Source: a virus (lineage: Duplodnaviria > Caudoviricetes). Taken from it: a stretch of DNA of 51,561 bases. Below are positions 4,327 to 50,814 of the stretch, piece by piece. The stretch lies in the IMG/VR virus record IMGVR_UViG_3300037245_001095, positions 1 to 51,561 of that record. The stretch is one strand, 5' to 3'. Positions within the stretch are counted from its first letter, which is position 1, and each line of letters opens with the position of its first letter. Under the pieces are notes generated by a model. The model made no database searches, was not told where the DNA came from, and worked only from the letters and a program-made list of their open reading frames with translations. The position numbers and the translations under genes were made by a program.

Positions 4327-4648
4327 CCGCGATGATATTTATGAGCGACTTGAAAAACAGAATGGTCGTAATAATCAAGTCATAAAAGCAATTGAAGAGT
4401 TTGCCGAGTTAATAAAAGAATTAACAAAACAACTTGGCAAAGATACATATACGAGTACTAAAAATATCTGTGAAGAAATAGCTGATGCTCGTGTTTGTCT
4501 TGAACAACTTGAGAGATTCTTTGACCCAAATGGTATTGCAGTTGAAATAGTTATAGACTATAAACTTCGTAGACTTGAGATGTTTTATCTTAAGGCTGAT
4601 GATACTATTGATGATGATGACTTAATTTTCAAGTCGATAGATAAATGA
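4313..4648 (+). CDS. MazG-like nucleotide pyrophosphohydrolase
   Basis: KAIEEFAELIKE...ICEEIADARVCLEQL (EExxE...EExxD pattern). Confidence 0.75.
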   Translation: MQKDNRDDIYERLEKQNGRNNQVIKAIEEFAELIKELTKQLGKDTYTSTKNICEEIADARVCLEQLERFFDPNGIAVEIVIDYKLRRLEMFYLKADDTIDDDDLIFKSIDK

Positions 4649-4653
4649 TTAAA

Positions 4654-4738
4654 TCGTCAATGACGACCAATGATTAGGTTTTTAGGGGTATATTAGTATA
4701 CCCCATTTATATATACTTTATTCGTCAATGACTATTGA
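4654..4738. repeat. dispersed element copy 1: TCGTCAATGAC x2, 68 bp apart, with internal hairpin
   Basis: Boxes at 4654 and 4722; hairpin GGGGTATA-TTAG-TATACCCC at 4685-4704. Confidence 0.85.
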
Positions 4739-4779
4739 AGTATCTAATAGATCATTTCAAATATTCCGGAGGAGTGTAA

Positions 4780-5148
4780 ATGGGAACTTTAGTTAAGTAC
4801 TGTGAAACTTGTAATAAACAATTTATGCCTTATCGACCATTTCAAAAATATCATAGTGATAAATGTAGACTTATTGCTCATGAAAAAGAATATCGATATG
4901 TAAGAAAACCAGACGTCACGAGACAATGCAGACAATGTGGTACGGAATTTGTAACAAATAATAAGAAGAAGGTATTTCATAATACAAAATGTCAAAAGGA
5001 ATATCAAATTGAAAATCGAAATAATCTGGAACCTGATGAAAGAACTTGTGCATACTGTGGTGATAAGTTCGAGACAACCCATCATGCCAAAAAATATTGT
5101 CACACAGACTGTTATGATGAAGCCAAGAAAGAGAGGGAAAAGAAATGA
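4780..5148 (+). CDS. triple zinc-finger protein (CxxC...C/HxxxC repeats)
   Basis: Three units: CETC..HSDKC, CRQC..HNTKC, CAYC..CHTDC; GGAGG RBS. Confidence 0.7.
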   Translation: MGTLVKYCETCNKQFMPYRPFQKYHSDKCRLIAHEKEYRYVRKPDVTRQCRQCGTEFVTNNKKKVFHNTKCQKEYQIENRNNLEPDERTCAYCGDKFETTHHAKKYCHTDCYDEAKKEREKK

Positions 5149-5536: not shown

Positions 5537-5757
5537 TGGAAGATATAAAAGAAGTAATGAAGGCTGGTGTATCTATTTTAATGGATACTATATTAAATCT
5601 TTTACAAAAAGATCCACATGGGTGGAGTGAAAGAGGTTGTTCTACTTGTCAAGCCATATCAAGTATTTCTGGAAGACCTTTTGGTTGTAGTTTATACAGA
5701 TTACAACGAGAAACTCAAAGAAAAAGAGAAGCAGAGAAGGACAAAAACAATGTATGA
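5536..5757 (+). CDS. hypothetical protein (small, Cys-containing)
   Basis: TAATG-coupled ORF; H..CSTC..C. Confidence 0.6.
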   Translation: MEDIKEVMKAGVSILMDTILNLLQKDPHGWSERGCSTCQAISSISGRPFGCSLYRLQRETQRKREAEKDKNNV

Positions 5758-7702
5758 GAAAATGGGTAATATAATATCTCTTGATACAGAGACAAAAGAC
5801 CCGCTATTGACAAATAAGAAGAAGTCATTGCCAAGTGGCCCGGGAGTCTTTAGAAGTACTCCACATGACTATCGTAATGAACATGGTTATCTTCTTGGTG
5901 TATCAATGGGTGATGAACATGGCAATAAATGCTATCTCAATTTAGGACATTACGAAGCAACAAAAGAATTAAGGGATGTCAATGTCAAATATTTAAAAGA
6001 AACCTTGGCACAGGCTGACACGATCATTGGCCAGAATCTGCTATATGATCTTGATTGGTTAGAGAATTGGTTAGGCATTAAGGTCAATGGTACCTTGATT
6101 GATGTTGGTGTTGCTGAAGCTCTGCTTGATGAAAATCAAGGTAAATACAACCTTGACTTCATGGGCATCAAGTATTTTGGTGAAGGCGAAGGCAAAGCAA
6201 AAGATAAAATACAGCAATTTTGTGACGATAATAATCTTAAAGGCGATGTTCGTAAATGGTTATGGAAAATGCCACATTATCTTGTTGAAGAATATGCTAT
6301 AAGAGATATTGAGCTTCCTATGAATATCTGGAAGATACAGGAACCTCTTCTTGAGGCAGAAGATCTAATGCCATTGATGAATCTTGAATGTGATCTATTA
6401 AGAGTACTACTTGTAATGCGAAAGAATGGTGTCAGAATTGATGAAGCCTTACGTAAATCAGCAGCTGATGAACTATATAGTTTAGTTAAAGAGAAACAAA
6501 CTTGGATAGACAAAGAAGTTGGTTTTCCAGTTAAATTCAGAAGTTCTAAACATCTTGCTTTTATATTTGACGAAAATAATATGCCTTATCCGATGACAGA
6601 CCCATCTAAAACTTATCCTTATGGTCAACCATCAGTACCACGTGACCATTTATTAAGATTAGCAAAAGGTCAATTAACTGGTTTTGATGCTGAAAAGATT
6701 ACTGACCCAAGACTATTAGAGATTGGACAATGTTTAGCAGACTTAAAAAGAGCTGATAAAGTTGTGAGTTCATTTGTTGATGGTAGTCTATTAAGATTTC
6801 AAACAGAAGGTAACTTAATTCATTGTAGTTTCTATCCAATGCGAACAGATGAATATGGCACGAGGTCTGGAAGATTTTCAAGTGCGAATCCAAACCTACA
6901 GCAAATACCATCAACTACTGTTGATATGTACTATGGCACATTAACACGTCGGCCATTTGTACCACTTGAAGATCATCTATGGCTTAAACTTGATTATTCA
7001 CAAATTGAATATCGATTCATGGCCCACTTTGCACGTGGCCAGGGAGCAGATGCTGTTAGAGAACAATATAATTTTAATCCAAGAACTGACTATCATAAAA
7101 TGATTGAAGATTTAACAGGATTGAAAAGAAGGTATGCAAAGAATTTAAATTTTGGTGTGGCATATGGGATGGGAGCAAAACATATGGCTGAGTTCTTTCA
7201 ATGGGATTTAGATTATTGTTATGATATACTTCGTATATATCATGCTAATGCACCATTTATTAAGAGTACAATTAAGGCGGTTGAACGAAGAGTGAAAGAT
7301 AAAGGTTATATCAGAACCTTCTTAAAAAGACGGTCACGTCTGATTGATAAGAATAAGGCTTATACAATGTTTTGTCGTTTGACACAAGGTTCAGCCGCAG
7401 ACCTTATGAAGAAAGGTATGTATGAAGTTTACAAAGCTGGAATATTTAATACACTCATACCAAGTTTAACTGTACATGATGAAATTGATTGTTCAATGCC
7501 AATCACAAAAGAAGGTATGGAAGCTGCACGTGAGGCTAAACATATCATGGAAACATGTATTGAATTAAAAGTACCAATCATTGCAGATATGGAGATTGGC
7601 AAAAATTGGGCCAAGTTAACTGCAGTTGATAAAGAATGGATTGGCTTAACAAAAGCCGAAGAAATGGCAGACTTTGAAAAGAAAGTAAAGGAGATTGCAT
7701 AA
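5750..7702 (+). CDS. polA: DNA polymerase family A with 3'-5' exonuclease domain
   Basis: ExoI LDTET, ExoII NLLYDL, ExoIII YAIRD; GTRSGRFSSANPNLQQIP; motif A DYSQIEYR; motif B RYAKNLNFGVAYG; motif C TVHDE. Start moved to ATG 5750. Confidence 0.96.
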   Translation: MYEKMGNIISLDTETKDPLLTNKKKSLPSGPGVFRSTPHDYRNEHGYLLGVSMGDEHGNKCYLNLGHYEATKELRDVNVKYLKETLAQADTIIGQNLLYDLDWLENWLGIKVNGTLIDVGVAEALLDENQGKYNLDFMGIKYFGEGEGKAKDKIQQFCDDNNLKGDVRKWLWKMPHYLVEEYAIRDIELPMNIWKIQEPLLEAEDLMPLMNLECDLLRVLLVMRKNGVRIDEALRKSAADELYSLVKEKQTWIDKEVGFPVKFRSSKHLAFIFDENNMPYPMTDPSKTYPYGQPSVPRDHLLRLAKGQLTGFDAEKITDPRLLEIGQCLADLKRADKVVSSFVDGSLLRFQTEGNLIHCSFYPMRTDEYGTRSGRFSSANPNLQQIPSTTVDMYYGTLTRRPFVPLEDHLWLKLDYSQIEYRFMAHFARGQGADAVREQYNFNPRTDYHKMIEDLTGLKRRYAKNLNFGVAYGMGAKHMAEFFQWDLDYCYDILRIYHANAPFIKSTIKAVERRVKDKGYIRTFLKRRSRLIDKNKAYTMFCRLTQGSAADLMKKGMYEVYKAGIFNTLIPSLTVHDEIDCSMPITKEGMEAAREAKHIMETCIELKVPIIADMEIGKNWAKLTAVDKEWIGLTKAEEMADFEKKVKEIA

Positions 7703-8094
7703 TGGCAAGAGATATGAATAGTTTTGCAGCAATAGGTAGATTGACAAGAGATATTGAAGTTAAAATAGCCGGTGGATATACCATTGGTAACTTTTCACTT
7801 GCAAATAATTATATTAAAAAAGGTGAAACAGATGTTAATTTTATCAACTGTGTAATGTTTGGTAAACTCGTAGACAGTATTGGTAAATATATGACAAAAG
7901 GAAAACAACTTGCTATCACTGGTGAACTCCGTCAGAATCGTTATCAAGTTGATGGACAATCAAGAAGTAAATGGGAGATTATTGTGAATACAGTACAGCT
8001 TCTTGGTAACAGTGGTTCTGGTAATGCAACACGTTCAACTGAGCAAGCATTCGAAGCCAATGATGAACAATTTGAGGATGATATACCATTTTGA
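7702..8094 (+). CDS. ssb: single-stranded DNA-binding protein
   Basis: GRLTRD...FINCV.FG...KGKQLAITGEL OB-fold; C-terminal EDDIPF tip. Confidence 0.95.
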   Translation: MARDMNSFAAIGRLTRDIEVKIAGGYTIGNFSLANNYIKKGETDVNFINCVMFGKLVDSIGKYMTKGKQLAITGELRQNRYQVDGQSRSKWEIIVNTVQLLGNSGSGNATRSTEQAFEANDEQFEDDIPF

Positions 8095-8522
8095 TTGAAT
8101 CAAAAATGCTTGATAAGATCAAAGGTTTATTACCTTATGTTTTCTTTCAGGGTATTGAGAATATGATTGATGTTGCAACACCAGATGTTTTCTTTACATT
8201 TGCTGAGGCCATTGGATGGTTTGAAATTAAACAACTTGATCGTGTACCGAAGTACAAGTTCAAAATGCCATGGCGTTCGGGGCAAATGGAATGGTATCTA
8301 AATTATAAACATCAGTATCAAAGTATTGGTGATTACTTTATCTTATTGACATTAAAAGACAGTTGGTATATCATTCGTGATATAAAAGAAATATATACTA
8401 TGAAAGAGATTGAAGGTTGTTATATGTGTCAAACTAAAGATATGAAAAGATTTACTAATAAGTTTGAAATGTTTATGCTTTCAAATTGTAAGAATCATCA
8501 AATCGTCAATGACATACAATAA
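8091..8522 (+). CDS. PD-(D/E)XK nuclease, Holliday junction resolvase/VRR-NUC-like
   Basis: MIES N-terminus, ENMIDVATPDVFF...WFEIK, Q..W motif. Confidence 0.7.
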   Translation: MIESKMLDKIKGLLPYVFFQGIENMIDVATPDVFFTFAEAIGWFEIKQLDRVPKYKFKMPWRSGQMEWYLNYKHQYQSIGDYFILLTLKDSWYIIRDIKEIYTMKEIEGCYMCQTKDMKRFTNKFEMFMLSNCKNHQIVNDIQ

Positions 8523-8587
8523 TTAGATTTAGGGGGATATTCATATATCCCCCATTCTTATACACTCCATTCGTCAATGACTATTGA
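8503..8587. repeat. dispersed element copy 2, at the convergence of early and late transcription
   Basis: Boxes at 8503 and 8571; hairpin GGGGGATAT-TCAT-ATATCCCCC at 8532-8553. Confidence 0.85.
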
Positions 8588-8618
8588 AGTTCTCAATAGA
8601 TCAGATTATCAATATCAC

Positions 8619-15737: not shown

Positions 15738-16445
15738 TTAACGTGCCTCCATTACTGATATAGCAAGATCAGTAAATTCATTTATTTCACTTTCTGATAT
15801 ATCAGAATCAAATATTGCATACATAGGTTTCTTTGTTGTATCTTCATGTCTATCAAGCCAGAACCCTTTACCCTTATGAACATAGTCATAAGTTGCAATA
15901 AAAGCATCAGCTTGAACTTCTGTAAGTTTATTCATTGCAATAGGAAAACCTCTGAGTCTTATACCAGTATTAAATAATACTTGTCCGCCATCTGTTTGTG
16001 CAAATAATGATGTGTCTTTATGCTCAATTTTTATTGGCTTACCAACATTATGAAGTTGTGTATAATTACCACATGAAAAACCACCAAGAAATGCTGCACT
16101 AACTGCACTTACTAAAGATATCTCAACCGATCTTACAGTTGTTAATTCAGTAATATATTGTTTTACTTCAGTACCAGGAAATGCTATTACAGTTGTACTA
16201 AGTACTCCACCACCACTATCTTTAAACACAACAGTTATTGACGAAAGATTATGATAACCTAAAAAGAAACTATCAACTGAAATATCTGCAGCCCATGTGA
16301 CTGTAATTACTGAACTTGCTGCAGATGCTTGTGTGATATCTTCGAGCATATTAGCATAGATATTTGCCACAGGATAATTACCATCAGGATTTGTCATTGC
16401 AATTGAACTATTTTCTTCAATCATATTTCTTGTTAATATTCTCAT
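15738..16445 (-). CDS. distal tail-like protein
   Basis: Immediately follows the tape measure gene; beta-rich. Confidence 0.6.
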   Translation of the reverse strand: MRILTRNMIEENSSIAMTNPDGNYPVANIYANMLEDITQASAASSVITVTWAADISVDSFFLGYHNLSSITVVFKDSGGGVLSTTVIAFPGTEVKQYITELTTVRSVEISLVSAVSAAFLGGFSCGNYTQLHNVGKPIKIEHKDTSLFAQTDGGQVLFNTGIRLRGFPIAMNKLTEVQADAFIATYDYVHKGKGFWLDRHEDTTKKPMYAIFDSDISESEINEFTDLAISVMEAR

Positions 16446-19400
16446 AGTTTGACCTGCCCATTTCTATAGTATTTCGCTGAATTAGTTGCAACTATTTTAC
16501 CATCAAGATATGTATTATTAACAATATGAATGACACCACCATCACTTCCATTTGTGAGTTCATTTGCAACATTTTTCTGGCCTGCCTTATTCAAGATTAT
16601 TTCACCAGCATCTGCAAGAACACTTGTCGCGTCACCTTTATAAGATGAACCTGGAATTACGCCACCGTCTCTAAATTTAGGTGGTTTAGGTTTTGATGCA
16701 CCAATTGCGAAAAGTTGTGCTGCAGCTAAACCAGTCATTACTAAACCACCTATAAAACCACCAGTTGCATAACCTTCTAATATTGCAAGTGCTGACTTAG
16801 TTATTGCTGCCAGACCATCAGCTGCCCATGATACTAAATCTGCTTTATACTGTAATTTAGCAATCTTCTCATTTGCATCATCAGTTGCAGCAATACGTAA
16901 CGCATCATATTGTTCTTGTATTGTTAAACGATCAAGTTCATTTTGAATCAATAATGCTTTCTGCGCGTCACCGGCTCTAAGAGCATCAAGAAATTGACGT
17001 TCAAGTTTTTCACGTTCGGTTTCTTCCGCGACCCCGGCTGCTTCAATTGCAGCATCTTCAAGAGTTTGTATATCTGCAAGTGCTTGAGTTAATTGCTCTT
17101 CTTCAACTGATATTAGATTACCTATAACAGCTTGAATAAGACTATCAAAAGCATCAATAAAATCTAATACAACATCTGTAATTTCTTCAAAGTTATTTTT
17201 AAAAGCTTCTAATCTTGCATTATCAGCAAGTATGTCATAAAGCTCATTTACTTTAACAATAGCTTCTTCATTACCTTCAACACTTTCCAAAGCTCTTTCA
17301 CGTTCAATTTCAATAAGTTCTAATTCAGATAAAGCTAACTTATCAATCTTATCTTGATATAACGCGATTTGTTCAGTACGTTCATCAAGGGCTGTTTGTT
17401 TAATACCTTCTGCTAAAGCATCAAAATAATTATCTATAGCTATTGTAGCTGATTCATTACCTTCAACAAGGATTAATGCTTTCTGTCTTTCAATTTCATT
17501 TAACCCAAGTTCAGTTGCAGCTAAATCTCTGAGTTTATCAATATATTCCTGAGTTGTAGTAGTTGCATCTTCAACTGGTTTAATATAATCACCAAATAAT
17601 TCAATGAACTTTGTAAAACCACCACCAGCAATTGTAAAACCTTCTGCAAGTAATTTATTTGCTGCATTTAATACAGCTGTTGATTGTTCTCTTTCAAGAT
17701 CAAACTTTTGTCCATTTGCTGCATACAAAATTTCTTTCTGTATGAGTTCAGCTAAAATAATGTCTAACTCTTCTTGTATTGCAAGTCGTTTTTCTAAATC
17801 TGTTGGTTCATCATCGTCTCTCACAGCACCAAATTCTACTTGATATTCTTTCCAAAGTCGAATAAGCTCTTGAATCTCTACCTCTTCTGCCTTTAATCCT
17901 TGTTCAACAAGAGCAGTCTGAGCTTTTAGAAAAGCACCTGATAAATCAGCATTACGATCATATTCATCACCAAGTAATTTCTGAAACTCTACAGATCTTT
18001 TAAATGCAGTTTCTAATGTCTTATATACTTCTGCAACATTTGCTTCTGTCTCTAATTCTGTGTTAGCTTCCTCTTTTGCTTTATCAATAAGAAATTGTCT
18101 TAAGGCTGCCTGTTCAGCTAAAGCATCACGTACTGATAAATTTAGGGCCTCTATTCTTTTACCTTCTGCAATTTCTTCTTCAAGTAATCCAAGACGTTCG
18201 CCTGCTTGCTCAACAAATAATTCATTTGTTTTACCAACAGCAATAGCCTGTTCTAATGTTACATCATTTACATCAGCAATATCTTGTAATGCTTTACGTA
18301 ATTTTTGAACAGTATCAAGACCTTCGCCAAAACCAGAACTTATCATACTAAGCTGTTTACTTACATCATTAGCCTTATTTAAAAATTCCTTCATATTATC
18401 TACAGCTATACCAGTATCAACTGCTATAGCACCAAAGTCGTCTTTTAAACGTTCCATACGCGCATTCTTTAATGCACCAATAGCAGCAATAATACCAACA
18501 ACACCAACAATCACACCACCAATTACTGCGGCTACTAAACCAAAACTTACTATAATAGGTGATAATAATATACCTATACCAATTAAGACTTTCTGCATTG
18601 CAAAAAGAGCTACAGTTAAACCAATAGTTACTGCAGCTACAACACCGATTGCAGTACCAACTGCTAAAAGACCAGAAGGTAATTTATTAACAAACTTAAC
18701 AATAGCAGTACCAGTGTCAACAAGACTCCTTAATGTTGGTTCAAACTCTTTAGCTATACTTATCTGTAATGCCTCTTCTGCATTTTTAAATTTATCAAAT
18801 GAACCCTGAAGTGTATCCATCTGAATTGCCATAGCCTCAAAAGCTCTATTAGTTCCAGTAACAGCTTCAGTCATTTCAATAATACCACCTTTGGCGGTAC
18901 TGGCTGATGATACAAGAGCAGCTAATTGAACACCTGATACTTTACCAAAAATGGCTGCAGCATTTGTTGCATCAACACCTTTATCACGTAATGTATCAAA
19001 AATATCAGCTAATGAATTAACTGTTGGATTTACTTCATTAAAAGTTATACCAAGTTTTGATAATTTTCTATTTACAACACTTGTTGAATCAGCAAGATTG
19101 ATTAAGATGGTCCTCAATCCACGACCGGCTTTCTCACCACTAAAACCTTTATTATAGAGTAATTGTAATGCACCAGTTGTTTCTTCAACTGTTAAACCAA
19201 GGCCTGCAGCAATAGGACCTAAGTATTCAAATGACTTAGTAAGTTTATTCATAGTTGCAAGAGAGTTAGTAATTGCGGCAGTGAATACATTTGCAATGCG
19301 TACTGATTCTTCTGATTGTAAATTATATTGTTTCAATACAGTTACAACAGTTTCTGTTGTTCTTGCTAAATCAGAACCAGTTGCTATGGCTAGAGCATTA

Positions 19401-19837
19401 ACACCATCTAAAGCTGCAATTGATTCAGCAGCACTAAGACCTGCAGATGCTAAAAAGTATAATGCATTTGCTGCAGCACTTGCTGTTGATCTCGTAGTTG
19501 CACCAACTCTACGTGCAGCTGCTTCCATGTCATTTAATTCTTCTGTGCTAGCACGGGCTACAGATTGTGTATTTGCTAATGACTGTTGAAACTTTGCAAA
19601 TACACCAATCATGTCAGTGAAGCCTTTAATAACGGCTCGAGAGGCTTTTAAAGCTACAGCAGTAATAATTGCAAAGGCTGCAGTATAAGATAGTTCAACT
19701 GTTTGAGCATTCTTCTTACTTTGAGTCGCAACACTCTTACCAAAATTATTCATTTTGCTTTTAGTGGCGTCGAGTTGTGAATGAAGCTTTTGAAAATCGA
19801 GTTCTATCTCTGCTCTAACTTTACCAACGTCTGGCAT
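16442..19837 (-). CDS. tail tape measure protein (TP901-like core)
   Basis: 1131 aa, Ala-rich helical; LASAGLS, G.SGEKAGRGLR, C-terminal FRDGGVIPG. Confidence 0.93.
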   Translation of the reverse strand: MPDVGKVRAEIELDFQKLHSQLDATKSKMNNFGKSVATQSKKNAQTVELSYTAAFAIITAVALKASRAVIKGFTDMIGVFAKFQQSLANTQSVARASTEELNDMEAAARRVGATTRSTASAAANALYFLASAGLSAAESIAALDGVNALAIATGSDLARTTETVVTVLKQYNLQSEESVRIANVFTAAITNSLATMNKLTKSFEYLGPIAAGLGLTVEETTGALQLLYNKGFSGEKAGRGLRTILINLADSTSVVNRKLSKLGITFNEVNPTVNSLADIFDTLRDKGVDATNAAAIFGKVSGVQLAALVSSASTAKGGIIEMTEAVTGTNRAFEAMAIQMDTLQGSFDKFKNAEEALQISIAKEFEPTLRSLVDTGTAIVKFVNKLPSGLLAVGTAIGVVAAVTIGLTVALFAMQKVLIGIGILLSPIIVSFGLVAAVIGGVIVGVVGIIAAIGALKNARMERLKDDFGAIAVDTGIAVDNMKEFLNKANDVSKQLSMISSGFGEGLDTVQKLRKALQDIADVNDVTLEQAIAVGKTNELFVEQAGERLGLLEEEIAEGKRIEALNLSVRDALAEQAALRQFLIDKAKEEANTELETEANVAEVYKTLETAFKRSVEFQKLLGDEYDRNADLSGAFLKAQTALVEQGLKAEEVEIQELIRLWKEYQVEFGAVRDDDEPTDLEKRLAIQEELDIILAELIQKEILYAANGQKFDLEREQSTAVLNAANKLLAEGFTIAGGGFTKFIELFGDYIKPVEDATTTTQEYIDKLRDLAATELGLNEIERQKALILVEGNESATIAIDNYFDALAEGIKQTALDERTEQIALYQDKIDKLALSELELIEIERERALESVEGNEEAIVKVNELYDILADNARLEAFKNNFEEITDVVLDFIDAFDSLIQAVIGNLISVEEEQLTQALADIQTLEDAAIEAAGVAEETEREKLERQFLDALRAGDAQKALLIQNELDRLTIQEQYDALRIAATDDANEKIAKLQYKADLVSWAADGLAAITKSALAILEGYATGGFIGGLVMTGLAAAQLFAIGASKPKPPKFRDGGVIPGSSYKGDATSVLADAGEIILNKAGQKNVANELTNGSDGGVIHIVNNTYLDGKIVATNSAKYYRNGQVKL

Positions 19838-28022: not shown

Positions 28023-29314
28023 TATCTACCACCATATGCTGACATGCCCTGTGCTAAACCTGGTACTGAAATTGTACCCTCTGGTTCATAATAACACAGA
28101 ACTAATCCATCAGCTCTATCAGGAGACTTATGTAATGCATGTGTGTGTAATGCAAATTCTTTTTTAGGTTCCAATTTCATTACTTCATAGCCTCGTTTTC
28201 CATTTATATAGCCATACTTTCTTGTATAAAGTTGTATAGCTAATTCTTCATCTATTGGTATATCTGCAAATTCAAGCTTTTCTTTCATCTCGAAGTACAT
28301 TTCAGTTACAACATCTTCATAATGCTTTTTATCTTTTGGAGTCCCACCAAAATTAATTCTGAATACATTATAACCATCATCTTCTGCAAGGTCAGCTACT
28401 GCTGAACCAAGATGCCCATTATCAATATTTATAAGACTATTCTTAGTTGCGAATGTCTTCAAATCTCTTAATGTTTCAACTGCACCCTGATACCGTGCTG
28501 TGTAATAATCAACAGTCTTCATATCAATACGCTTGTAGAAAGTTATTTCATCTCCACCTTGATGCGCAATATCTGCACCAATTATCGGTACACTTGGCCT
28601 GGGCCGCTTGATGATTCTTTGCTGTGCACCTTCAACAAGTTCTGCAGGACAAACAAATGTTTCATTGGCGTCTGCAAGTACACCTTCCCAGATATGATCG
28701 GCACGGTTCACATCCCTTTTATAGTCAGCGTCTTTCTCTTGCATCAATGACTTTGGAAACCAAGGATTATCCTCCCAGTTTAAAAATAAGACTTCTGCAC
28801 CATCATCTGTGTTTCTGATATAGTCCACGTATACCGGGTCACTGGAATAGCGAGGATTAAAATCCCACCAGAATACTGCAGTCTCCTTTCTAATCGTTGG
28901 TCTCAATATATCAATTGACTGTCTAGATATTGACTGTGCCTCAGCCACCCAACATCTATCTGCACCTTCAAGTGACTTAATACTGTCACTGTTATGCTCA
29001 TGCAAACCGGCGAATACAAATTTCGTGCCATTAAGGCCACGAATCTCAGTCTTCGTAACCTTATAAAAATAACCCCAGCCAAACAATTTAATTGTGTCGA
29101 CAAGCAATTTCTGTACTGAGTACTGAATTGACTTCTGGACTTCACGGACACAAACAATAAAAAGTTCTTCTGACATTCCTTCTAATAATAATATTCTTGC
29201 GATGGACCAAGAGGCTCCTTTACCACGACCACCATAAACAATACGATGTCGTTTATCGCAACCAATAACAAGACGTGTATGTATCTTCTGAATAATTTTT
29301 ACTGTTTGTTTCAC
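28022..29314 (-). CDS. terL: terminase large subunit (PBSX-like)
   Basis: YGGRGKGAS Walker A, CVREVQKSI, SIKSLEG, WVAEAQ, FNP; nuclease GADIAHQGGD and SPDRADG. Confidence 0.95.
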   Translation of the reverse strand: MKQTVKIIQKIHTRLVIGCDKRHRIVYGGRGKGASWSIARILLLEGMSEELFIVCVREVQKSIQYSVQKLLVDTIKLFGWGYFYKVTKTEIRGLNGTKFVFAGLHEHNSDSIKSLEGADRCWVAEAQSISRQSIDILRPTIRKETAVFWWDFNPRYSSDPVYVDYIRNTDDGAEVLFLNWEDNPWFPKSLMQEKDADYKRDVNRADHIWEGVLADANETFVCPAELVEGAQQRIIKRPRPSVPIIGADIAHQGGDEITFYKRIDMKTVDYYTARYQGAVETLRDLKTFATKNSLINIDNGHLGSAVADLAEDDGYNVFRINFGGTPKDKKHYEDVVTEMYFEMKEKLEFADIPIDEELAIQLYTRKYGYINGKRGYEVMKLEPKKEFALHTHALHKSPDRADGLVLCYYEPEGTISVPGLAQGMSAYGGR

Positions 29315-29761: not shown

Positions 29762-29871
29762 GAGAATATATCATTTTTTCTATATATTAGGTTTAATAGA
29801 TTATTATATATAGCATATCTGAATGGCAGATGTCTAAAATGTCTAAAATGGATTAAAAATCAATCTTCATA

Positions 29872-29956
29872 TCGTCAATGACTGTCAATGATTCGATTTT
29901 CAGTGGTGTATCTATATCCCTGATATAGGGATACTTTAGTCGTCAATGACGATTGA
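29872..29956. repeat. dispersed element copy 3, upstream of the late promoter
   Basis: Boxes at 29872 and 29940; hairpin TATCCCT-GATAT-AGGGATA at 29915-29933. Confidence 0.85.
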
Positions 29957-30266
29957 TCTTTTAGATGAATAAATCTGGGATTTATCTGGTAAATGTGAGA
30001 AATATTGAGGTTTAAGTGGTTTTTAACTAGTTTTAAGGGATATTTGAAACATTATATATGATACAGATTGCATGACCCTGGTCACTTGCCCGACACCATC
30101 ATGGGATATTTTTAGGACATGCGACGTATCTGAATCATAAAACTCAAAATGCACCATAGAGATAGAAGGCTATATAAGGCCCGGGCTATATAGACTTTTC
30201 CGAATATACCTGATGATATATATTTCTTTACTTGAATATATAAATAATTATATATATAAATTATTC

Positions 30267-33809: not shown

Positions 33810-33828
33810 ATTATAAAGAGGTAGAGAG

Positions 33829-34326
33829 ATGAAAAGTAAAATAGCAATGCAAACCGTTATTGAAATGATGAATAATGGTTCACTTGATTTTATCAGAGAT
33901 GAAGCAAGTAATGCTTTTGATAATATGTTAAAAGAAGAAATTTATCGTGCTTTAAAAGAAGATGCTTCAGCTAATTATACAACTGAAGATACCAATCTGA
34001 TAACAAATATTATTCAGGCATCAATGAAGTTTGATGCTGAATACTGCTCTGAAATGCAGATGATTATGAATTGTTTTATTGAAGAGCACGGGGCAAGTAT
34101 CATAGATACTTTGTTAATTTTCACTGAGACTCAATTTAACAATATAGATATATTGGCTAGAGATGAAAGAGAAGTATTTACAAGAAGATTGATAGAGAGT
34201 AAAGTATTGAGCAAATTGTTTAATTGGTATATTGAAGCTAATAATGAAGATATAGCAGAGATACTTGTTGATAAGATACTTGATAAAATATCATATGAAG
34301 TTAGTAAAGCATTAGATGAGGTATAG
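33829..34326 (+). CDS. acidic hypothetical protein, paralog family A
   Basis: NCFIEEH...DTLLIFTE and LFNWYIE shared with the next gene. Confidence 0.75.
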   Translation: MKSKIAMQTVIEMMNNGSLDFIRDEASNAFDNMLKEEIYRALKEDASANYTTEDTNLITNIIQASMKFDAEYCSEMQMIMNCFIEEHGASIIDTLLIFTETQFNNIDILARDEREVFTRRLIESKVLSKLFNWYIEANNEDIAEILVDKILDKISYEVSKALDEV

Positions 34327-35110: not shown

Positions 35111-35132
35111 ATTGATATAAAGAGGTAGAGAG

Positions 35133-35303
35133 ATGATTGCAACAATTAAGTTTGATGTATTAAAGAATAATTGTTTACATAATGGTGATCAACCTGGAGG
35201 TTTAACAGGGCAATGTCAGCATTACTTACAAAGTAACAAAACAAGAGACAATTCAAGATGTTGTTTAACTAATTGTCCAACTATACTAAATATAAAGAGG
35301 TAG
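35133..35303 (+). CDS. small Cys-rich protein (56 aa, not in the ORF track)
   Basis: Conserved AGAGGTAGAGAG-ATG start; MIATIKFDVLKNNC...CCLTNCP. Confidence 0.65.
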   Translation: MIATIKFDVLKNNCLHNGDQPGGLTGQCQHYLQSNKTRDNSRCCLTNCPTILNIKR

Positions 35304-38520: not shown

Positions 38521-38825
38521 TGCAAACTAAAACAATAATACCCATAGAACAAGACCTGTGGCAAGTGACCAGTGAACCGGGAGATGCAACACAGTATACT
38601 TATTATGTACATTTAGGCTATAACAATGTATATCATTTTATGCCAAGAAATGTGCAAATAAGATATCCAGCACATCTTACATTAGAAACATTGTGTGTAC
38701 TTGATAAAAATTATATTGAAGATGATGATCATATTGTAAGTCAACTCGCCAAAGATTTTAATTGTAATCCTTGGACTATTCTTGAATGTATACGAACCGT
38801 GAAGGAGCTCAATGATGTACATTGA
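38517..38825 (+). CDS. hypothetical phage protein
   Basis: EPGDATQY and CNPWT motifs; coupled ORF. Confidence 0.65.
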   Translation: MMQTKTIIPIEQDLWQVTSEPGDATQYTYYVHLGYNNVYHFMPRNVQIRYPAHLTLETLCVLDKNYIEDDDHIVSQLAKDFNCNPWTILECIRTVKELNDVH

Positions 38826-39309
38826 TATAAGGGTATTAAAACCGGAAATATTTGCTGTACCTTCATTCAGTACTGAAATAGCAGTACTTAAACCTTATAA
38901 TCCTGGTGAATTTATGGATATTGATGATGAACCAATAGCAAGATCAGATATTAATGCAGAACATTATCAGATATATAAAATCGTGAATATGATTGATGAT
39001 CTTGAAGCAGAAGAGATATTCTTTGTTATTGTAGACAAAGATATTGAAACATATATTGATAGTCAATTTGAGGCTTTAGAAAGACGAAATATTATAATAC
39101 AAAAGTTGGAGCATGAACTTAGTTGTAGAAAAATTGACTTATCTTTGGCGCAAAAGATAATTGAACTTTATAATGCCTATGGCTTCTGGAAGAATATCAA
39201 GATATGGTTCCATAGAAGAAGAGTCGAGCTTGATCTAAATAAAGTTATTGGAAAACCAACTACTTCACATACTAATTATATGAAACTCATAAATAAGGAA
39301 TTAAAATAA
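38812..39309 (+). CDS. hypothetical protein
   Basis: AAGGAG RBS; coiled-coil segment. Confidence 0.65.
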   Translation: MMYIDIRVLKPEIFAVPSFSTEIAVLKPYNPGEFMDIDDEPIARSDINAEHYQIYKIVNMIDDLEAEEIFFVIVDKDIETYIDSQFEALERRNIIIQKLEHELSCRKIDLSLAQKIIELYNAYGFWKNIKIWFHRRRVELDLNKVIGKPTTSHTNYMKLINKELK

Positions 39310-39839
39310 TGGCTAAAGAAATAACAAGAGAAGAGTTGAAACCAACTCTAAGACATTACTGGAGAATGAGAAAGGCTGCTTATAAATGCTTAGTTAATGG
39401 TGATAGTCTTAGTCCAATGAATATGTCTACACTTATTGGTGAGGATTGGTTTGGTAACTATTGCAGCTTATGTATTAAATATTGTAAAGAATCTAAAGCT
39501 CATATATTAAATATACATCAATGTACAGGTTGTCCAATAAAAGAGAATGGCTTTTGTTGCTTAGGCTATGGGTCATTGTGGGGTGCTATGAATCGCTCAG
39601 CTGATTGTCAAGAGTTCATTGGAAGATTAACAATTATGGCCAAAATGATCATGAAGTTACCAAGAGAGAAAATGATATGCCCTGAATGTGACGACATGTT
39701 ACAAGAAGATTGTGAAGTTGATTGTGACTATGATTATGAGTCACCAGAATGTCAAGAACATATGGATAGTGCAGAATGTGAAGATTTAAATGCAACTTGC
39801 GAAACATGTGATGGTGAAGGCGAAATCAATGCAAGATAA
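39309..39839 (+). CDS. Cys-rich protein with DnaJ-type zinc-finger ends, paralog family D
   Basis: CSLC, CTGCP, CPEC, CETCDGEG. Confidence 0.75.
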   Translation: MAKEITREELKPTLRHYWRMRKAAYKCLVNGDSLSPMNMSTLIGEDWFGNYCSLCIKYCKESKAHILNIHQCTGCPIKENGFCCLGYGSLWGAMNRSADCQEFIGRLTIMAKMIMKLPREKMICPECDDMLQEDCEVDCDYDYESPECQEHMDSAECEDLNATCETCDGEGEINAR

Positions 39840-39851
39840 AGAGGTAAAGAG

Positions 39852-40376
39852 ATGGCTAAAGAAATAACAAGAGAAGAGTTGAAACCAACTCTAAGACATT
39901 ACTGGAGAATGAGAAAGGCAGCCTTCAACTTTATAGATAAATATGATGAAGTTGACCCAGTGCTAATGGCCAATACTATTGGTGAGAGTTGGTATGGAAA
40001 AGATTGCTTCTTATGTCAGAAACATTATAGTAGAGATCTTGAATTACAAGGTGTTAATGATAAGCAATGTTGTAGACATTGCCCATTAAAAGAAAATAGT
40101 TTTTGTTGTCTATATGAATTTTCAATATGGAACATTATGAATGATTCAGATAGTTGGACTGAGCTCATTAGTAGTTTAACAACTATGGCTCGGATCATAA
40201 TGAAGCTACCAAGGGCCCGGGTCACGTGTCCCGACTGCAATGGTCATGGTACTGAACAATGTGGACATCAGTCACATCATATTGAGACAATGTCGAATTG
40301 TGATATATCTGATTGTGAGAATGGTTGGATAACATGTAAGACCTGTAATGGTGAAGGAGCAATCAATGCCAGATAA
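39852..40376 (+). CDS. Cys-rich protein with DnaJ-type zinc finger, paralog family D
   Basis: CFLC, CRHCP, CPDCNGHG, CKTCNGEG; first 68 nt identical to the upstream gene. Confidence 0.75.
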   Translation: MAKEITREELKPTLRHYWRMRKAAFNFIDKYDEVDPVLMANTIGESWYGKDCFLCQKHYSRDLELQGVNDKQCCRHCPLKENSFCCLYEFSIWNIMNDSDSWTELISSLTTMARIIMKLPRARVTCPDCNGHGTEQCGHQSHHIETMSNCDISDCENGWITCKTCNGEGAINAR

Positions 40377-43202: not shown

Positions 43203-43252
43203 CCCCTCCCAAGAGGTTATAATTGTTCTGGAGCAGTTGGCCTAACCAACTA

Positions 43253-43323
43253 TGGTGTGTAGCTCAGGCTGGTACGAGCGCTGTTGATCACGGAGGTCAG
43301 AGGTTCAAATCCTCTCACATCAT
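43253..43323 (+). tRNA. atypical tRNA-like gene with shortened anticodon arm (GAT at arm centre)
   Basis: Acceptor TGGTGTG/CACATCA; D arm GCTC..GAGC; T arm AGAGG-TTCAAAT-CCTCT; anticodon arm only 13 nt; no CCA. Confidence 0.7.
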
Positions 43324-43351
43324 GAGCCTTATATGGCTAAGGAGATAAGAA

Positions 43352-44164: not shown

Positions 44165-44313
44165 GTGACAGTGGCGTAATTGGTAAACGCACTCAGACGT
44201 GAGGTTAAGTAATGCGGAAAGTAATAAACTGCTTTCAGAAATGGGATAATAGTAAACCATCGCCGAAAGGTTAGTAGCATTGTTCTATGCAGGTTCGAGT
44301 CCTGTCTGTCGCA
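44165..44313 (+). ncRNA. tRNA-like RNA with a 98-nt structured insert replacing the anticodon/variable arms
   Basis: Acceptor GTGACAG/CTGTCGC; D arm GCGT-AATTGGTAA-ACGC; T arm GCAGG-TTCGAGT-CCTGT. Confidence 0.75.
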
Positions 44314-45321: not shown

Positions 45322-45520
45322 ATATGCCCAGAAGGTTGCGTTATATGGCAAACAACTCGCTGAACAAATGGAACCTGATATTCAAAGAACAATACTTGAG
45401 ATAAAGATTACTGCTGTGTATAAAGCAATTAAAGACGACAATTTTAAAGCAATACACAAACAAACAACAGAATTACGAGCAATCATTGGTGTATCTAAAA
45501 GAAGAATGGAAGGAAAATGA
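45308..45520 (+). CDS. hypothetical protein
   Basis: GAGGAG RBS upstream of ATG 45308. Confidence 0.6.
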   Translation: MTMIKYAQKVALYGKQLAEQMEPDIQRTILEIKITAVYKAIKDDNFKAIHKQTTELRAIIGVSKRRMEGK

Positions 45521-45521
45521 A

Positions 45522-46292
45522 ATGACTCCAGCTGAAAAGTTCTTTAACGATAATAAATTGACACCAGAACAGAGACAAGTTATGAAGACATTTGAATTGC
45601 ATAAGAAGTATGGAATGGAAGCCCAGAGAATGGACGAAATATTTGGCTCAGTGAGCGGAAGGTTTAATAGTCAGAAACCAAACTTTACTGTTGAACCAAA
45701 GAGTGCATTTGAGCCTAATGATGAAACTTTTAGAGAGCGTTACTCAGGTAAGTTTGATCTTGCTGACATGGAAGCCAGAATCTTTGCACAAATGTCTGCT
45801 ACAGAAAAAGATAGACTTGGTACTTTAAAAGATGAATACTTCAATGATACAGTTCATAGTGCATCTGCACAGACTTGTGCAGAAAATGATGATCATATGA
45901 AGCATAAAGACATAAGAGACTTTTTACATCATTATAGTAACGGACCAAGTACATTTGGTGAAGTTATATACGGACATAAACAGCCATCACCAAAGTTTGC
46001 AGAAGGTGGCAAATTACATATGTCAATGAGTGGCAGAATACACACTAATGAGCCTATTATAAGACCAATAAGAGTAGTCAACCCATTAGGATTAACTCAT
46101 GGTTGCCCATTCTGTGGCACGTGGGATGAAGAGGAGGAACAAGCAATATTAGAAACATTAAATGATGCTAAGACAGCTATAGTAAATTGGAATGTAGTCT
46201 GTAGTTGTGGGGCAATGGGACCTGATGCTGATTCAAGAGAAGAAGCTATCAGTCGATGGAACAATATAGAAGAGGTACGAGATGGAAAGTAA
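45522..46292 (+). CDS. PolA-motif mosaic fused to a Lar-family (restriction alleviation) zinc finger
   Basis: C-terminal CPFCG...VVCSCGAMGP...EEAISRWN; N-terminal PolA-like motifs (see findings). Confidence 0.75.
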   Translation: MTPAEKFFNDNKLTPEQRQVMKTFELHKKYGMEAQRMDEIFGSVSGRFNSQKPNFTVEPKSAFEPNDETFRERYSGKFDLADMEARIFAQMSATEKDRLGTLKDEYFNDTVHSASAQTCAENDDHMKHKDIRDFLHHYSNGPSTFGEVIYGHKQPSPKFAEGGKLHMSMSGRIHTNEPIIRPIRVVNPLGLTHGCPFCGTWDEEEEQAILETLNDAKTAIVNWNVVCSCGAMGPDADSREEAISRWNNIEEVRDGK

Positions 46293-47525: not shown

Positions 47526-49183
47526 AGATGGATTTTAAAACAAAACCATATGCACATCAATTAGAGGCTTTTGAGAAGTTCAAAGATAAAGAGTTCTTTG
47601 CTCTGTTCATGGATATGGGCACGGGGAAAACAAAAGTTGCTATTGATATTGCAGCACATAAGTATGAGAAAGGTGAGATAGATGCAATGTTAATAATTGC
47701 ACCTAATCATGTGCATACACAATGGATTACTGAACAGTTCATTCTACATTGTCCCGTGCCATACAAGGCTTTTATATGGAAATCAAGTAAACGTGGCACA
47801 CATGGTTATCAATATCAGATGGATAACTTTCTCACGCCAAAGATAGATAAATTAAAAGTCTTTACAGTGAATGTAGAAGCCTTTCAATCAGATACTATAA
47901 TACCAACTATAAGAACTTATGTTAAGCATAATAAAGTATTTACAGTAGTTGATGAATCAACAAGGATTAAGAATCCAAAAGCAAAGAGAACCAAAACGAT
48001 TCATAAACTTGAGAAGTATGGCCAACGTTGTATATTAACAGGGACACCAGCAACAAAATCTCCATTTGGTTTGTGGTCAATGTTTGAGTTCTTAAAAAAA
48101 GGATTTTTTGAATGTAATTATTTCATCTTTCAGGCCCGTCATGGTGTCATGATGAACGGTATCAATCAAAGGACCGGAGGACGATACAGAACCCTTATAG
48201 ATGAAAAGACATGGCATATTGTATTATCACAATTGAAAGAGATACAAGAAATAAGAAATGGTCCTTTAATGTCTGATGACTACTTGGCAGTTGCAGAAGG
48301 AATGGGAGTCTCTGAAAAGAATGTGAGGTTTATTGAGTATCAAAAAGAATTTAAAAAATATAAACGTCTTGATGAAATAAAAGAGAAGATCAGTGCAGTC
48401 ACATTCTATGCTCGTAAAGAAGATTGTCTTGATTTACCAGATAAAGTCTATCAACCAACTTTTGTTGAAATGCATAAAGATCATAGAAAGATTTATAATA
48501 ATTTAAAGAAAACTATGCTCGCTGAATATGCTGGTGAAGAATTGACTGTAACAAACAAGGCTGCATTAACTACAAGACTAATGCAAGTTTGTGGTGGATA
48601 CTTTCCATATACTGAAGAAGTTGATGTAAGTATTGGCGATCAAGTTCGGACCGTAGTAAAGGTCAAGGCAAAGCAGATTGGTTTAAAGAATCAGAAAATT
48701 GAGCGTATAAAAGAAGAGCTTGAAGAATTGAGCTCATTTCCAGTAATTATATGGGCAAGATTTGTTGTTGAATTACAAGCAATATATGCTGCATTGAAGA
48801 AGGATTATAAATGCTGTTTATATTATGGTAAGACTCCAGCACATGAAAGAGCTGATATCATTGAAGATTTTAAAGCTGGTGATTATGATATCTTTATTGG
48901 TAATCCTGCAGTAGCCGGTTTTGGTTTGAATCTACAAAATGCAACAACTCAATTATTTTATTCTAATAGTTATGATGTTGAAGCAAGATTACAAGCTGAA
49001 GATCGATCACATAGACTTGGTGTAAAAGATACTTGTTTATATAAGGATTTTGCATATAAGAATACAATTGATGAAAGAATAGCACGAGCTATTCTGAGTG
49101 GTAAAGCAATGAATGACTTCTTTAGACAGCCATTAGAAGCATTGCTTGATGATGAAGAAAAGGAGGTTAAAGATAATGGATAA
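47522..49183 (+). CDS. SNF2-family (SF2) helicase
   Basis: MDMGTGKT, VDEST.IKN, LTGTP, GLNLQ, QAEDRSHRLG. Confidence 0.93.
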   Translation: MKMDFKTKPYAHQLEAFEKFKDKEFFALFMDMGTGKTKVAIDIAAHKYEKGEIDAMLIIAPNHVHTQWITEQFILHCPVPYKAFIWKSSKRGTHGYQYQMDNFLTPKIDKLKVFTVNVEAFQSDTIIPTIRTYVKHNKVFTVVDESTRIKNPKAKRTKTIHKLEKYGQRCILTGTPATKSPFGLWSMFEFLKKGFFECNYFIFQARHGVMMNGINQRTGGRYRTLIDEKTWHIVLSQLKEIQEIRNGPLMSDDYLAVAEGMGVSEKNVRFIEYQKEFKKYKRLDEIKEKISAVTFYARKEDCLDLPDKVYQPTFVEMHKDHRKIYNNLKKTMLAEYAGEELTVTNKAALTTRLMQVCGGYFPYTEEVDVSIGDQVRTVVKVKAKQIGLKNQKIERIKEELEELSSFPVIIWARFVVELQAIYAALKKDYKCCLYYGKTPAHERADIIEDFKAGDYDIFIGNPAVAGFGLNLQNATTQLFYSNSYDVEARLQAEDRSHRLGVKDTCLYKDFAYKNTIDERIARAILSGKAMNDFFRQPLEALLDDEEKEVKDNG

Positions 49184-49460
49184 GTTAATTGTGACAAGAC
49201 ATACTGCACTTGTGGCTTATTTAATTGAAAAAGGTTATGTAGATAAAGACACTCCACATATTGCACATGCAGATGTTGAGGATGTAAAAGGTAAGCATGT
49301 CTATGGAATCTTACCAAATTGGTTGGCATGTCATGCTGACAAATTTACAGAGGTACAATTAAGATTGCCAGTTGATAAAAGGGGTGCTGAACTATCATTA
49401 AAAGATGTAAAATTTTATATTGTAGAACCAAAAACATATACCATAAGGAGAGTAATATGA
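49176..49460 (+). CDS. csx16: Csx16-like protein (candidate cyclic oligoadenylate ring nuclease)
   Basis: VTRHxAL...H...HVYGILPxWLA...LPxxxRGxELS matches the Csx16 pattern (SRHxGA...VxGxLPxxLA...LPxxxRGxELS); AAGGAGG RBS. Confidence 0.8.
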   Translation: MDKLIVTRHTALVAYLIEKGYVDKDTPHIAHADVEDVKGKHVYGILPNWLACHADKFTEVQLRLPVDKRGAELSLKDVKFYIVEPKTYTIRRVI

Positions 49461-50079: not shown

Positions 50080-50814
50080 ATGGCTGAAGCAAAAAAAGAG
50101 CAGATGGATTTTATTGAGGAGGGCATAGATAAGCTTGAAGGATTTGAAGATGTAAATGCCAAAACAATGGCAATTCCATTTATTAAATTGGCACAAGACC
50201 TTACCAATGAAACAAAGAAACAAAAAGATGTATATATTGAAGGTCTTGAAACAGGAATGTTTTTCAATGCAGGTACTCAGGAAATACTTGGTGATAATTT
50301 TGATATGATTATCCTTAAGTTTGAAAGAGTATATATTGAATGGAAGCCAGACCGGGGTGGTTTTGTATCTTATCATACACCAGAGAATGCAGAAAGACTC
50401 GCAACAAATAAATTAAAATTTGGTCACTGGAAAAATGATGTTGGTAATGAGTTTAATGAATATTACACTTATTATGGCCTAATGGCTGGCAGAGAGGAAG
50501 AAGGTTTAATTATTTTTTCAATGGCCTCAACAAATATTAAGACTGCAAAAGTCTTAAACAAAGTTATGACAACACACAAAATGCCTAATGGTAAAATTGC
50601 ATTACCATATTATCTGATATGGAATGTCAAAACTGCGAATGCCGAAAAGAATGGTCAAGATTGGTTTGCCCCAAAGTTTAGGTTCAAGGACTATATCAAT
50701 GAGCAGCAGTATAACATTATTATCGGTGAACGCAAAGCATTACCAGATAAGCGTGTAGATTATGCTCTTCTTGAAGATCGCACTGAATCACAATATAGTG
50801 ATGATGATCTTTAA
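50080..50814 (+). CDS. putative phage-type ssDNA-binding/annealing protein
   Basis: GFED...MAIPFIKLAQ...YIEWKP..GGFV motif, acidic C-tip; lies between helicase and nuclease genes. Confidence 0.6.
   Translation: MAEAKKEQMDFIEEGIDKLEGFEDVNAKTMAIPFIKLAQDLTNETKKQKDVYIEGLETGMFFNAGTQEILGDNFDMIILKFERVYIEWKPDRGGFVSYHTPENAERLATNKLKFGHWKNDVGNEFNEYYTYYGLMAGREEEGLIIFSMASTNIKTAKVLNKVMTTHKMPNGKIALPYYLIWNVKTANAEKNGQDWFAPKFRFKDYINEQQYNIIIGERKALPDKRVDYALLEDRTESQYSDDDL

Follow-up and report, generated by a model that had tools for sequence, protein, structure and literature searches.

We report that a tailed phage encodes a 94-residue protein, P0001, which judged from profile searches is a genuine but divergent member of the Cas_VVA1548/Csx16 family and which probably acts as a homodimeric ring nuclease that degrades cyclic tetra-adenylate (cA4), counters type III CRISPR immunity and is carried as a movable cassette. 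The gene lies on the plus strand at positions 49176-49460 of IMG/VR virus record IMGVR_UViG_3300037245_001095 (Duplodnaviria; Caudoviricetes), of which all 51,561 bases were analysed and are referred to here as the window. The window is the full 51.6-kb genome of a tailed phage, its completeness being put at 100% by CheckV.

Immunity by type III CRISPR systems relies on signalling through cA4. In the sources cited here, few viral families of ring nucleases or signal sponges are described, namely AcrIII-1/Crn2, a viral SAVED protein and, as a proposal, Crn4b. Hoikkala et al. (2025, PMC12409355) report that purified Csx16 fully degraded cA4 but not cyclic tri-adenylate (cA3) or cyclic hexa-adenylate (cA6), a specificity that held at a 10-fold higher enzyme concentration (10 µM), and that the tested protein, assayed with substrate in 100-fold excess, performs multiple turnovers. 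The same report models Csx16 as a dimer, places it in 68 type III loci and finds that ring nucleases occur together only with effectors that depend on cA4. Its survey of 28,114 phage genomes counts AcrIII-1 in 36, Csx20 in four and Csx16 in two, and in the cited sources the phage copies of Csx16 and Csx20 have been counted only. A 2021 review (PMC8284326) relays a prediction by Makarova that His, Arg and Asp/Glu are the functional residues of Csx16 and are compatible with a ring-nuclease function, together with the observations that Csx16 partly resembles DUF1874 (AcrIII-1/Crn2) in sequence and occurs fused to Csx1.

Family membership and conserved residues

P0001 was compared with the Pfam, NCBIfam, PADLOC and PHROGs collections. 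It scores 57.9 bits (E 1.2e-15) on Pfam PF09652 (Cas_VVA1548), whose gathering score is 25, and the match covers profile positions 2-88 of 91. Three PADLOC Csx16 models also match, the best with an E-value of 1.6e-13, as does the C-terminal Csx16 part of the PADLOC CARF-HEPN-Csx16 fusion model (E 5.6e-5). The PF09652 cut-off was passed by all 11 viral relatives scored and by loci L019 and L020, where the scored set is the viral relatives other than L002 and L003, with L006-L008 represented by the same product in L005 and the partial L018 dropped. No PHROGs family matched P0001 at E ≤ 1, and Csx20, Crn1 and Csx15 gave no Pfam, NCBIfam or PADLOC match.

AcrIII-1/Crn2 (DUF1874), reportedly shown by Athukoralage and colleagues in 2020 to be a viral cA4 ring nuclease anti-CRISPR, is alike in its proposed role, that of a small viral homodimer destroying cA4. 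Its conserved motifs differ, and so do its catalytic residues. P0001 had no match to Pfam DUF1874 at E ≤ 1, which bears out an earlier statement that AcrIII-1 is a different family.

The open reading frame (ORF) has 94 codons and its product begins MDKLIVTRH. The ATG (49176-49178) lies inside the last codons of an SNF2 helicase gene, an overlap of 8 nucleotides (nt), and the TGA (49458-49460) overlaps the ATG of the following DUF7307 gene (49457) by 4 nt (ATGA). An alternative TTG start at 49146 would give a product of 104 residues, and is less likely because the homologues start at the M-[DE]-K position. The motifs of P0001 are T7-R8-H9, G44-I-L-P47, L50-A51, T58-E59, R69-G70-A-E72-L73-S74 and T87-Y88.

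PADLOC, run on the 82 ORFs of the window, returned no core cas match, only generic helicase and primase-polymerase look-alikes besides the Csx16 match itself, and a repeat scan of the window found no array-like repeat family. P0001 thus lacks the linkage to cas genes that marks Csx16, as its gene sits in a complete phage genome with neither a core cas gene nor an array; it is encoded by a virus, one of the two features, next to relief of type III immunity, that would place it in the AcrIII class of anti-CRISPRs. An earlier reading of this DNA, made from the letters alone (the sequence-only reading), had described a 94-residue gene overlapping its neighbours on both sides, the TRH, GILP..LA and RG.ELS motifs, and a genome free of cas genes and arrays, and all three descriptions agree with the results given here.

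A homologue search of 5.8 billion proteins gave 19 sequences at E ≤ 0.001 among 21 candidates. Apart from the product of the window itself, these comprise 18 proteins with 55-68% identity to P0001, several of them encoded on contigs of 35-49 kb. The alignment of these close homologues has 21 invariant columns, including T7, R8, H9, G44, L46, P47, A51, T58, E59, L73, T87 and Y88, and the three motifs named by the sequence-only reading are invariant or nearly so at this range. At a greater distance, a profile search of 1.84 billion cluster representatives recovered 1,364 family members at E ≤ 0.001, 750 of them at E ≤ 1e-10, and conservation was counted over 160 domains cut from the best 150 of the 1,364 representatives. 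The motifs are strongly conserved here too: T7 is kept in 148 of the 160 domains, R8 in 144, H9 in 151, G44 in 157, P47 in 159, T58 in 147, E59 in 124, R69 in 134, G70 in 140, E72 in 129, L73 in 154 and Y88 in 146. Every one of these 12 counted residues is present in P0001. Close relatives in cultured phages were sought with tblastn, using P0001 and the homologue at L016 against 50,697 INPHARED records, and none was found at E ≤ 1e-3 in this set, which may omit near-identical records.

Likeness to Csx16 extends over the full length of the same Pfam family, a size of about 90-100 residues, the Thr-Arg-His, GxLP, Thr-Glu and RGxEL positions and a predicted dimer.

Predicted structure and dimer

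AlphaFold2, given a 19-row alignment, modelled P0001 as alternating strands and helices with a mean predicted local distance difference test (pLDDT) score of 94.2 and a predicted template-modelling (pTM) score of 0.82. Foldseek found no match to this model at E ≤ 0.001 in the PDB or BFVD; the top structural matches include AFV3-109 (2j6c_A) and the Crn2 domain of 8y7g_B, with many unrelated Rossmann-like folds scoring similarly, and fold matches to Csx20, Crn1 and Csx15 were too weak for assignment. A search for a Csx16 structure among PDB sequences (phmmer and profile) matched only designed ankyrin repeats, with a best E-value of 9e-4. That match covers a short 'D-V-x-G-x-x-x-G-I-L-P-x-x-L-A' stretch resembling the ankyrin 'G-x-T-P-L-H-L-A-A', and was rejected as motif mimicry because the confident model has a strand-loop-helix of a beta/alpha sandwich at this place. 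PDB sequence searches with a 671-residue fusion and with the product P0150 were uninformative.

A complex predicted from two copies of P0001 scored 0.74, and none of three controls scored above 0.00. This mark was attained by 20 of 30 proteins solved as homo-pairs and by one of 23 solved as single chains, a calibration that is only rough since our own alignment was fed in. Three runs gave contact agreement of at least 100% and a partner pLDDT of at least 92. The predicted interface comprises the C-terminal strand 86-94 together with residues 48-49, 52, 56 and 59, and so includes the conserved E59, T87 and Y88. The modelling supports a P0001 homodimer, the unit that a cA4 site would need, and tandem two-domain fusions, which make up 14 of the 150 best family representatives, point the same way. 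A set of 28 longer homologues, mostly of 200-250 residues, contains PF09652 only.

Genomic slots and mobility of the gene

The scan of IMG/VR was limited by its search pattern and found relatives encoded at 17 of 27 pattern-matched loci, hence on at least 17 contigs. The GC content was computed for 10 carrier loci (eight IMG/VR contigs, L019 and L020) and ranges from 0.28 to 0.63. No cas gene was found among the 131 ORFs near 10 other carrier loci, nor in L021.

The gene occupies several positions in these genomes. It follows the SNF2 helicase gene, as in the window, in L002, L013 and L019; in L003 the downstream backbone of the window is present and the locus starts at the Csx16-like gene, which leaves the helicase outside the view. 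In L004-L008 and L020 it directly follows PolA (slot B), the position held by the single-stranded DNA-binding protein (SSB) in the window. Copies in L009 and L014-L017 belong to phages in which no further gene in common with the window was detected; there, as in L010-L012, which show other arrangements again, the gene usually lies amid small ORFs without Pfam matches. On the L009 contig, which is unrelated to the window, a gene with a SocA/Panacea domain (antitoxin-like; 4398-5012, minus strand) lies about 3 kb from the Csx16-like gene. The corresponding empty site is seen in three slot-B genomes (G254-G256, loci L037-L039), where a helicase 55-56% identical to that of the window is directly followed by the DUF7307 gene. 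In L019, the closest relative of the window, an additional DUF7352 gene (6983-7243, 87 residues) separates the Csx16-like gene from the SNF2 helicase, which suggests that small accessory genes have a hot spot at the helicase junction.

A tree was built from 43 rows: the copy of the window, 17 copies from the loci and, from the 150 representatives, 25 that have a single domain and no more than 115 residues. L006 and L008, identical to L005, were not entered, nor was the partial L018. In the tree the window clusters with L002/L003 and L019 (support 89/73) and the slot-B copies form another group (94/92), while L013, a helicase-slot copy on a similar backbone, is placed elsewhere. An approximately unbiased (AU) test rejected the five helicase-slot copies as a single group, with a log-likelihood lower by 67 (p 4.3e-5); the group had been set by synteny before the tree was built, and the test was run after the tree had been seen. 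The rejection of a single origin means that two or more lineages of the gene occupy the helicase slot. Taken together, the differing slots, the empty site, the rejection by the AU test and the spread of GC content show that the Csx16-like gene is a mobile accessory gene which has entered a small number of hot spots within a conserved replication module time and again. Repeated landing in hot spots is presumably the usual behaviour of counter-defence genes.

Copies in plasmids, islands and cellular genomes

A scan of cellular contigs found relatives in three of 11 pattern matches. Two are on short phage-like contigs that had been binned into metagenome-assembled genomes (MAGs), one of a Mycoplasmatota bacterium and the other of Candidatus Oleincola secundus (Atribacterota). 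The third, in a Deinococcota MAG (L021), lies between integrases, a helix-turn-helix regulator and a type ISP restriction enzyme. PF09652 occurs in one of 86 and one of 399 genomes of the phyla of the first two MAGs, the matches being those MAGs themselves (two further genomes were not scored), and in five of 251 sampled Deinococcota genomes; it was absent from 14 control genomes.

None of the five Deinococcota loci inspected, the island L021 included, has a cas-adjacent Csx16. At four of them (83 ORFs), no NCBIfam cas family other than Csx16 itself was found at E ≤ 1e-6, and the neighbours are VirD4/TraG coupling proteins, a serine recombinase, insertion sequence transposases and ParB. A tblastn search of PLSDB led back to two of these replicons, pMESIL02 of Allomeiothermus silvanus and a plasmid of Deinococcus proteolyticus, whose copies are both annotated as 'CRISPR-associated protein Csx16'. 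The pMESIL02 copy adjoins type IV secretion genes, and no cas gene is annotated within 12 kb of it. Two 'Csx16' proteins of plasmids or islands, at 72302-73087 of pMESIL02 (L036) and at 9563-10462 of L033, are 261-300 residues long with two tandem Cas_VVA1548 domains, and their genes adjoin type IV secretion coupling-protein or recombinase genes and not cas genes.

Cas10 is encoded elsewhere in some of these cells: the A. silvanus genome has a Csm1 on the chromosome and a Cmr2 on a second replicon, and the Deinococcota MAG has a Csm1 on a contig other than that of the Csx16-like gene. No Cas10 was found in the D. proteolyticus genome. A copy on a mobile element can therefore share its cell with a type III system whose genes lie in another place, an arrangement that would fit action in trans.

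Proposed function and alternatives

The observed basis for a phage anti-type III device consists of membership of the family, retention of its polar residues, the confident fold, the predicted dimer, the setting in a phage without cas genes and the mobility between slots; from these we infer the binding and cleavage of cA4 by P0001, its timing of expression and its effect on immunity. In the mechanism that we consider the most probable, the phage would express P0001 together with the replication genes on the same strand, with which it shares overlapping start and stop codons. Upon recognition of phage RNA by a host type III complex, Cas10 would make cA4, and the P0001 dimer would bind it in a pocket that the conserved loops Thr-Arg-His, Gly-x-Leu-Pro, Thr-Glu and Arg-Gly-x-Glu make up, and would cleave it to linear products. 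The cA4-activated effectors (Csx1, Can1/2, Cam1 and similar) would then never be switched on.

Several results weigh against this reading. On the narrow NCBIfam Csx16 model TIGR02620, P0001 scores 16.4 bits (E 0.008) and does not reach the cut-off of 46.35, and because it falls so far below this mark it is assigned to a divergent branch. No Cas10 was found in the two MAGs with related phage-like contigs (G002 and G003), both of which are incomplete. In all window relatives the Csx16-like gene lies within the replication module, a position compatible with a replication-linked role. Our literature search found no paper testing a phage-encoded Csx16, and an orphan member of a related small CARF-like family, PfCsx15, sequesters cA4 without cleaving it (PMC13148439).

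The proposal of the sequence-only reading, that of a phage-borne Csx16-like protein serving as an anti-type III ring nuclease, is thus upheld in part. The Pfam score and the PADLOC matches make P0001 a family member in a phage without a CRISPR locus, but the TIGR02620 equivalog cut-off is far from being reached, and P0001 further differs from Csx16 in belonging to a branch found on viral contigs. By comparison, the two Deinococcota plasmid copies named Csx16 in RefSeq score 42.6 and 44.6 bits on TIGR02620 (our own ORF calls). Its description of the gene as a captured host off-switch would presuppose transfer from host to phage; the family copies examined on plasmids and in islands are located away from cas genes. 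The cleavage of cA4 by Csx16, which the sequence-only reading had mentioned, is in print as cA4 but not cA3 or cA6, and the anti-CRISPR idea is correct in kind but less new than implied, as Csx16 had already been counted in two of 28,114 phage genomes (PMC12409355).

The divergence of P0001, an orphan far under the TIGR02620 cut-off, together with the precedent of PfCsx15 (PMC13148439), would suit a dimer that binds cA4 or another cyclic oligoadenylate tightly without turnover and so sequesters the signal. We regard such a sponge as unlikely, although it is the foremost of the alternatives, since Thr-Arg-His, Glu59 and Arg69/Glu72 are kept in P0001 as strictly as in the rest of the family and the sole Csx16 tested in the cited report is a multiple-turnover enzyme (PMC12409355).

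Slightly less probable is that the same fold and chemistry serve a different or broader ligand, with P0001 degrading cA3, cA6 or the nucleotides of the cyclic oligonucleotide-based anti-phage signalling system (CBASS) or Pycsar, thereby countering other or additional systems. In favour of such a ligand, Crn4 degrades cA3, cA4 and cA6, with its phage copies proposed to act against both CRISPR and CBASS (PMC12830947), Csx15 is described as broad-specificity in a 2026 preprint, and the phage clade of the window is a separate branch of its family. Against this, the tested Csx16 stayed cA4-specific at 10 µM enzyme (PMC12409355) and the ligand-facing motifs of P0001 are those of the family.

We give about the same low weight to a role in replication unrelated to defence, for instance as a small protein of Rossmann-like type that binds nucleotides or DNA and partners the helicase or polymerase. 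In favour of such a role, the gene of the window and its relatives immediately follows either the SNF2 helicase or PolA, start and stop codons overlapping, and in L004-L008 it takes the place of SSB in the window. A replication partner is nevertheless hard to reconcile with a slot that is empty in related phages, with helicase-slot copies that are not monophyletic, and with the presence of the family in phages (L009, L014-L017) that otherwise have no gene in common with the window, beside plasmid type IV secretion genes and in an integrase-flanked island; furthermore, the only activity demonstrated for the family in the cited report is cA4 cleavage (PMC12409355). That the ORF is a chance or decaying remnant has practically no probability: nothing was found in its favour, and it is ruled out by the Pfam match (E 1.2e-15), the 18 homologues at 55-68% identity with 21 invariant columns, a good ribosome site and the confident fold.

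More tentatively, and with considerable doubt, we propose that the Cas_VVA1548 family may serve mobile elements in counter-defence no less than it serves CRISPR systems as an accessory. P0001 might then represent a 'viral Csx16', an unnamed viral class of type III anti-CRISPRs spread over uncultivated phages of very different GC content and hopping between hot-spot positions of replication modules, which would also be found on conjugative plasmids and integrative islands, acting there in trans on host Cas10 systems; exchange with CRISPR loci could possibly have run from virus to host. Virus-to-host exchange has been argued for Crn2. Csx20, like Csx16, has been counted in phages (four genomes; PMC12409355), and P0001 is likewise comparable to Crn4b (PMC12830947) and to the viral SAVED ring nuclease (PMC12751052), CRISPR off-switch families which are also found on phages or plasmids and presumed to be anti-CRISPRs in the cited sources.

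The cA4 activity of the family and its occasional presence in phages are already published (PMC12409355); new here are how large and widespread the viral branch is, the hopping of the gene between slots, and the plasmid and island copies located away from cas genes. If P0001 is active, one more family would be added to the confirmed viral signal-erasing enzymes, a family that would be in wide circulation as a movable cassette in uncultured phages and in plasmids, and its 94 residues would offer a compact cA4-degrading tool and a marker for phages facing cA4-signalling hosts. The concept is unchanged by the finding, which fills in a case that the field already expected.

Genome context and additional features

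The genome has a GC content of about 33%. A long block of plus-strand genes encodes an archaeo-eukaryotic primase (AEP) primase-polymerase, a UvrD helicase, ThyX, DNA polymerase A, SSB, the SNF2 helicase and the Pam3 gp33- and gp34-like proteins, and the gp34-like gene is syntenic in L003, L004-L008 and L013 (Table 1). A replication role of the DUF7307 gene 3' of the Csx16-like gene is assumed from its position. The best cultured-phage match to the window PolA is 36% identical.

Table 1. Principal features of the window around the candidate ring nuclease gene and in the rest of the genome
Feature	Position	Strand	Basis or remark
DNA polymerase A	5618-7702	+	Pfam DNA_pol_A
SSB	7702-8094	+	Pfam SSB; directly after PolA (joint span 5618-8094)
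Tape-measure protein	16445-19837	-	
Large terminase	28025-29314	-	
SNF2-family helicase, 553 residues	47522-49183	+	Pfam SNF2-rel_dom 73.2 bits, Helicase_C 58.1 bits; PHROG 62 DNA helicase, E 3e-111
AAGGAGG, Shine-Dalgarno-like	49160-49166	+	9 nt 5' of the ATG, within the helicase coding sequence
Csx16-like gene (P0001), 94 residues	49176-49460	+	Candidate viral cA4 ring nuclease; Pfam PF09652, PADLOC Csx16
DUF7307 (Pam3 gp33-like) gene, 186 residues	49457-50017	+	Pfam PF23984 58.9 bits
Pam3 gp34-like gene	50080-50814	+	Pfam PF23977 128.7 bits; next in the conserved replication-module backbone

Two genes 5' of the SNF2 helicase, a plus-strand gene at 45486-46292 (268 residues) has C-terminal sequence of about 55 residues weakly resembling the Lar restriction-alleviation zinc ribbon (Pfam 21.2 bits, under the cut-off of 28.6; PHROG 599, E 7.9e-7), and may be a second anti-defence gene.

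An intergenic element of about 111 nt occurs in three copies that are 70-77% identical (4644-4754, 8493-8603 and 29862-29972). Each contains a GC-rich hairpin (AGGGGTATAT...ATATACCCC) and an invariant TCGTCAATGAC box on both flanks, and because the copies mark the borders between blocks of genes, a function as terminator-plus-operator modules is probable. A genuine tRNA-Ile(GAT) is present at 43252-43324; close to it, the plus-strand stretch 44165-44313 scores 35 bits on the Rfam tRNA model (gathering score 29) over 149 nt without an ARAGORN call, and could be an intron-containing or degenerate tRNA.

Three paralogous plus-strand genes of about 165-176 codons lie in a row at 38812-39306, 39309-39836 and 39852-40376 (span 38812-40376), with no PHROG match at E ≤ 1e-8, and this span contains a 194-nt direct repeat of 75% identity (39293-39486 and 39836-40029). 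Finally, a highly stereotyped translation-initiation region of about 23 nt, AAAGAGGTAGAGAAATG, is common to at least 10 plus-strand gene starts, for example at 33810-33832, 35114-35136 and 39833-39855.

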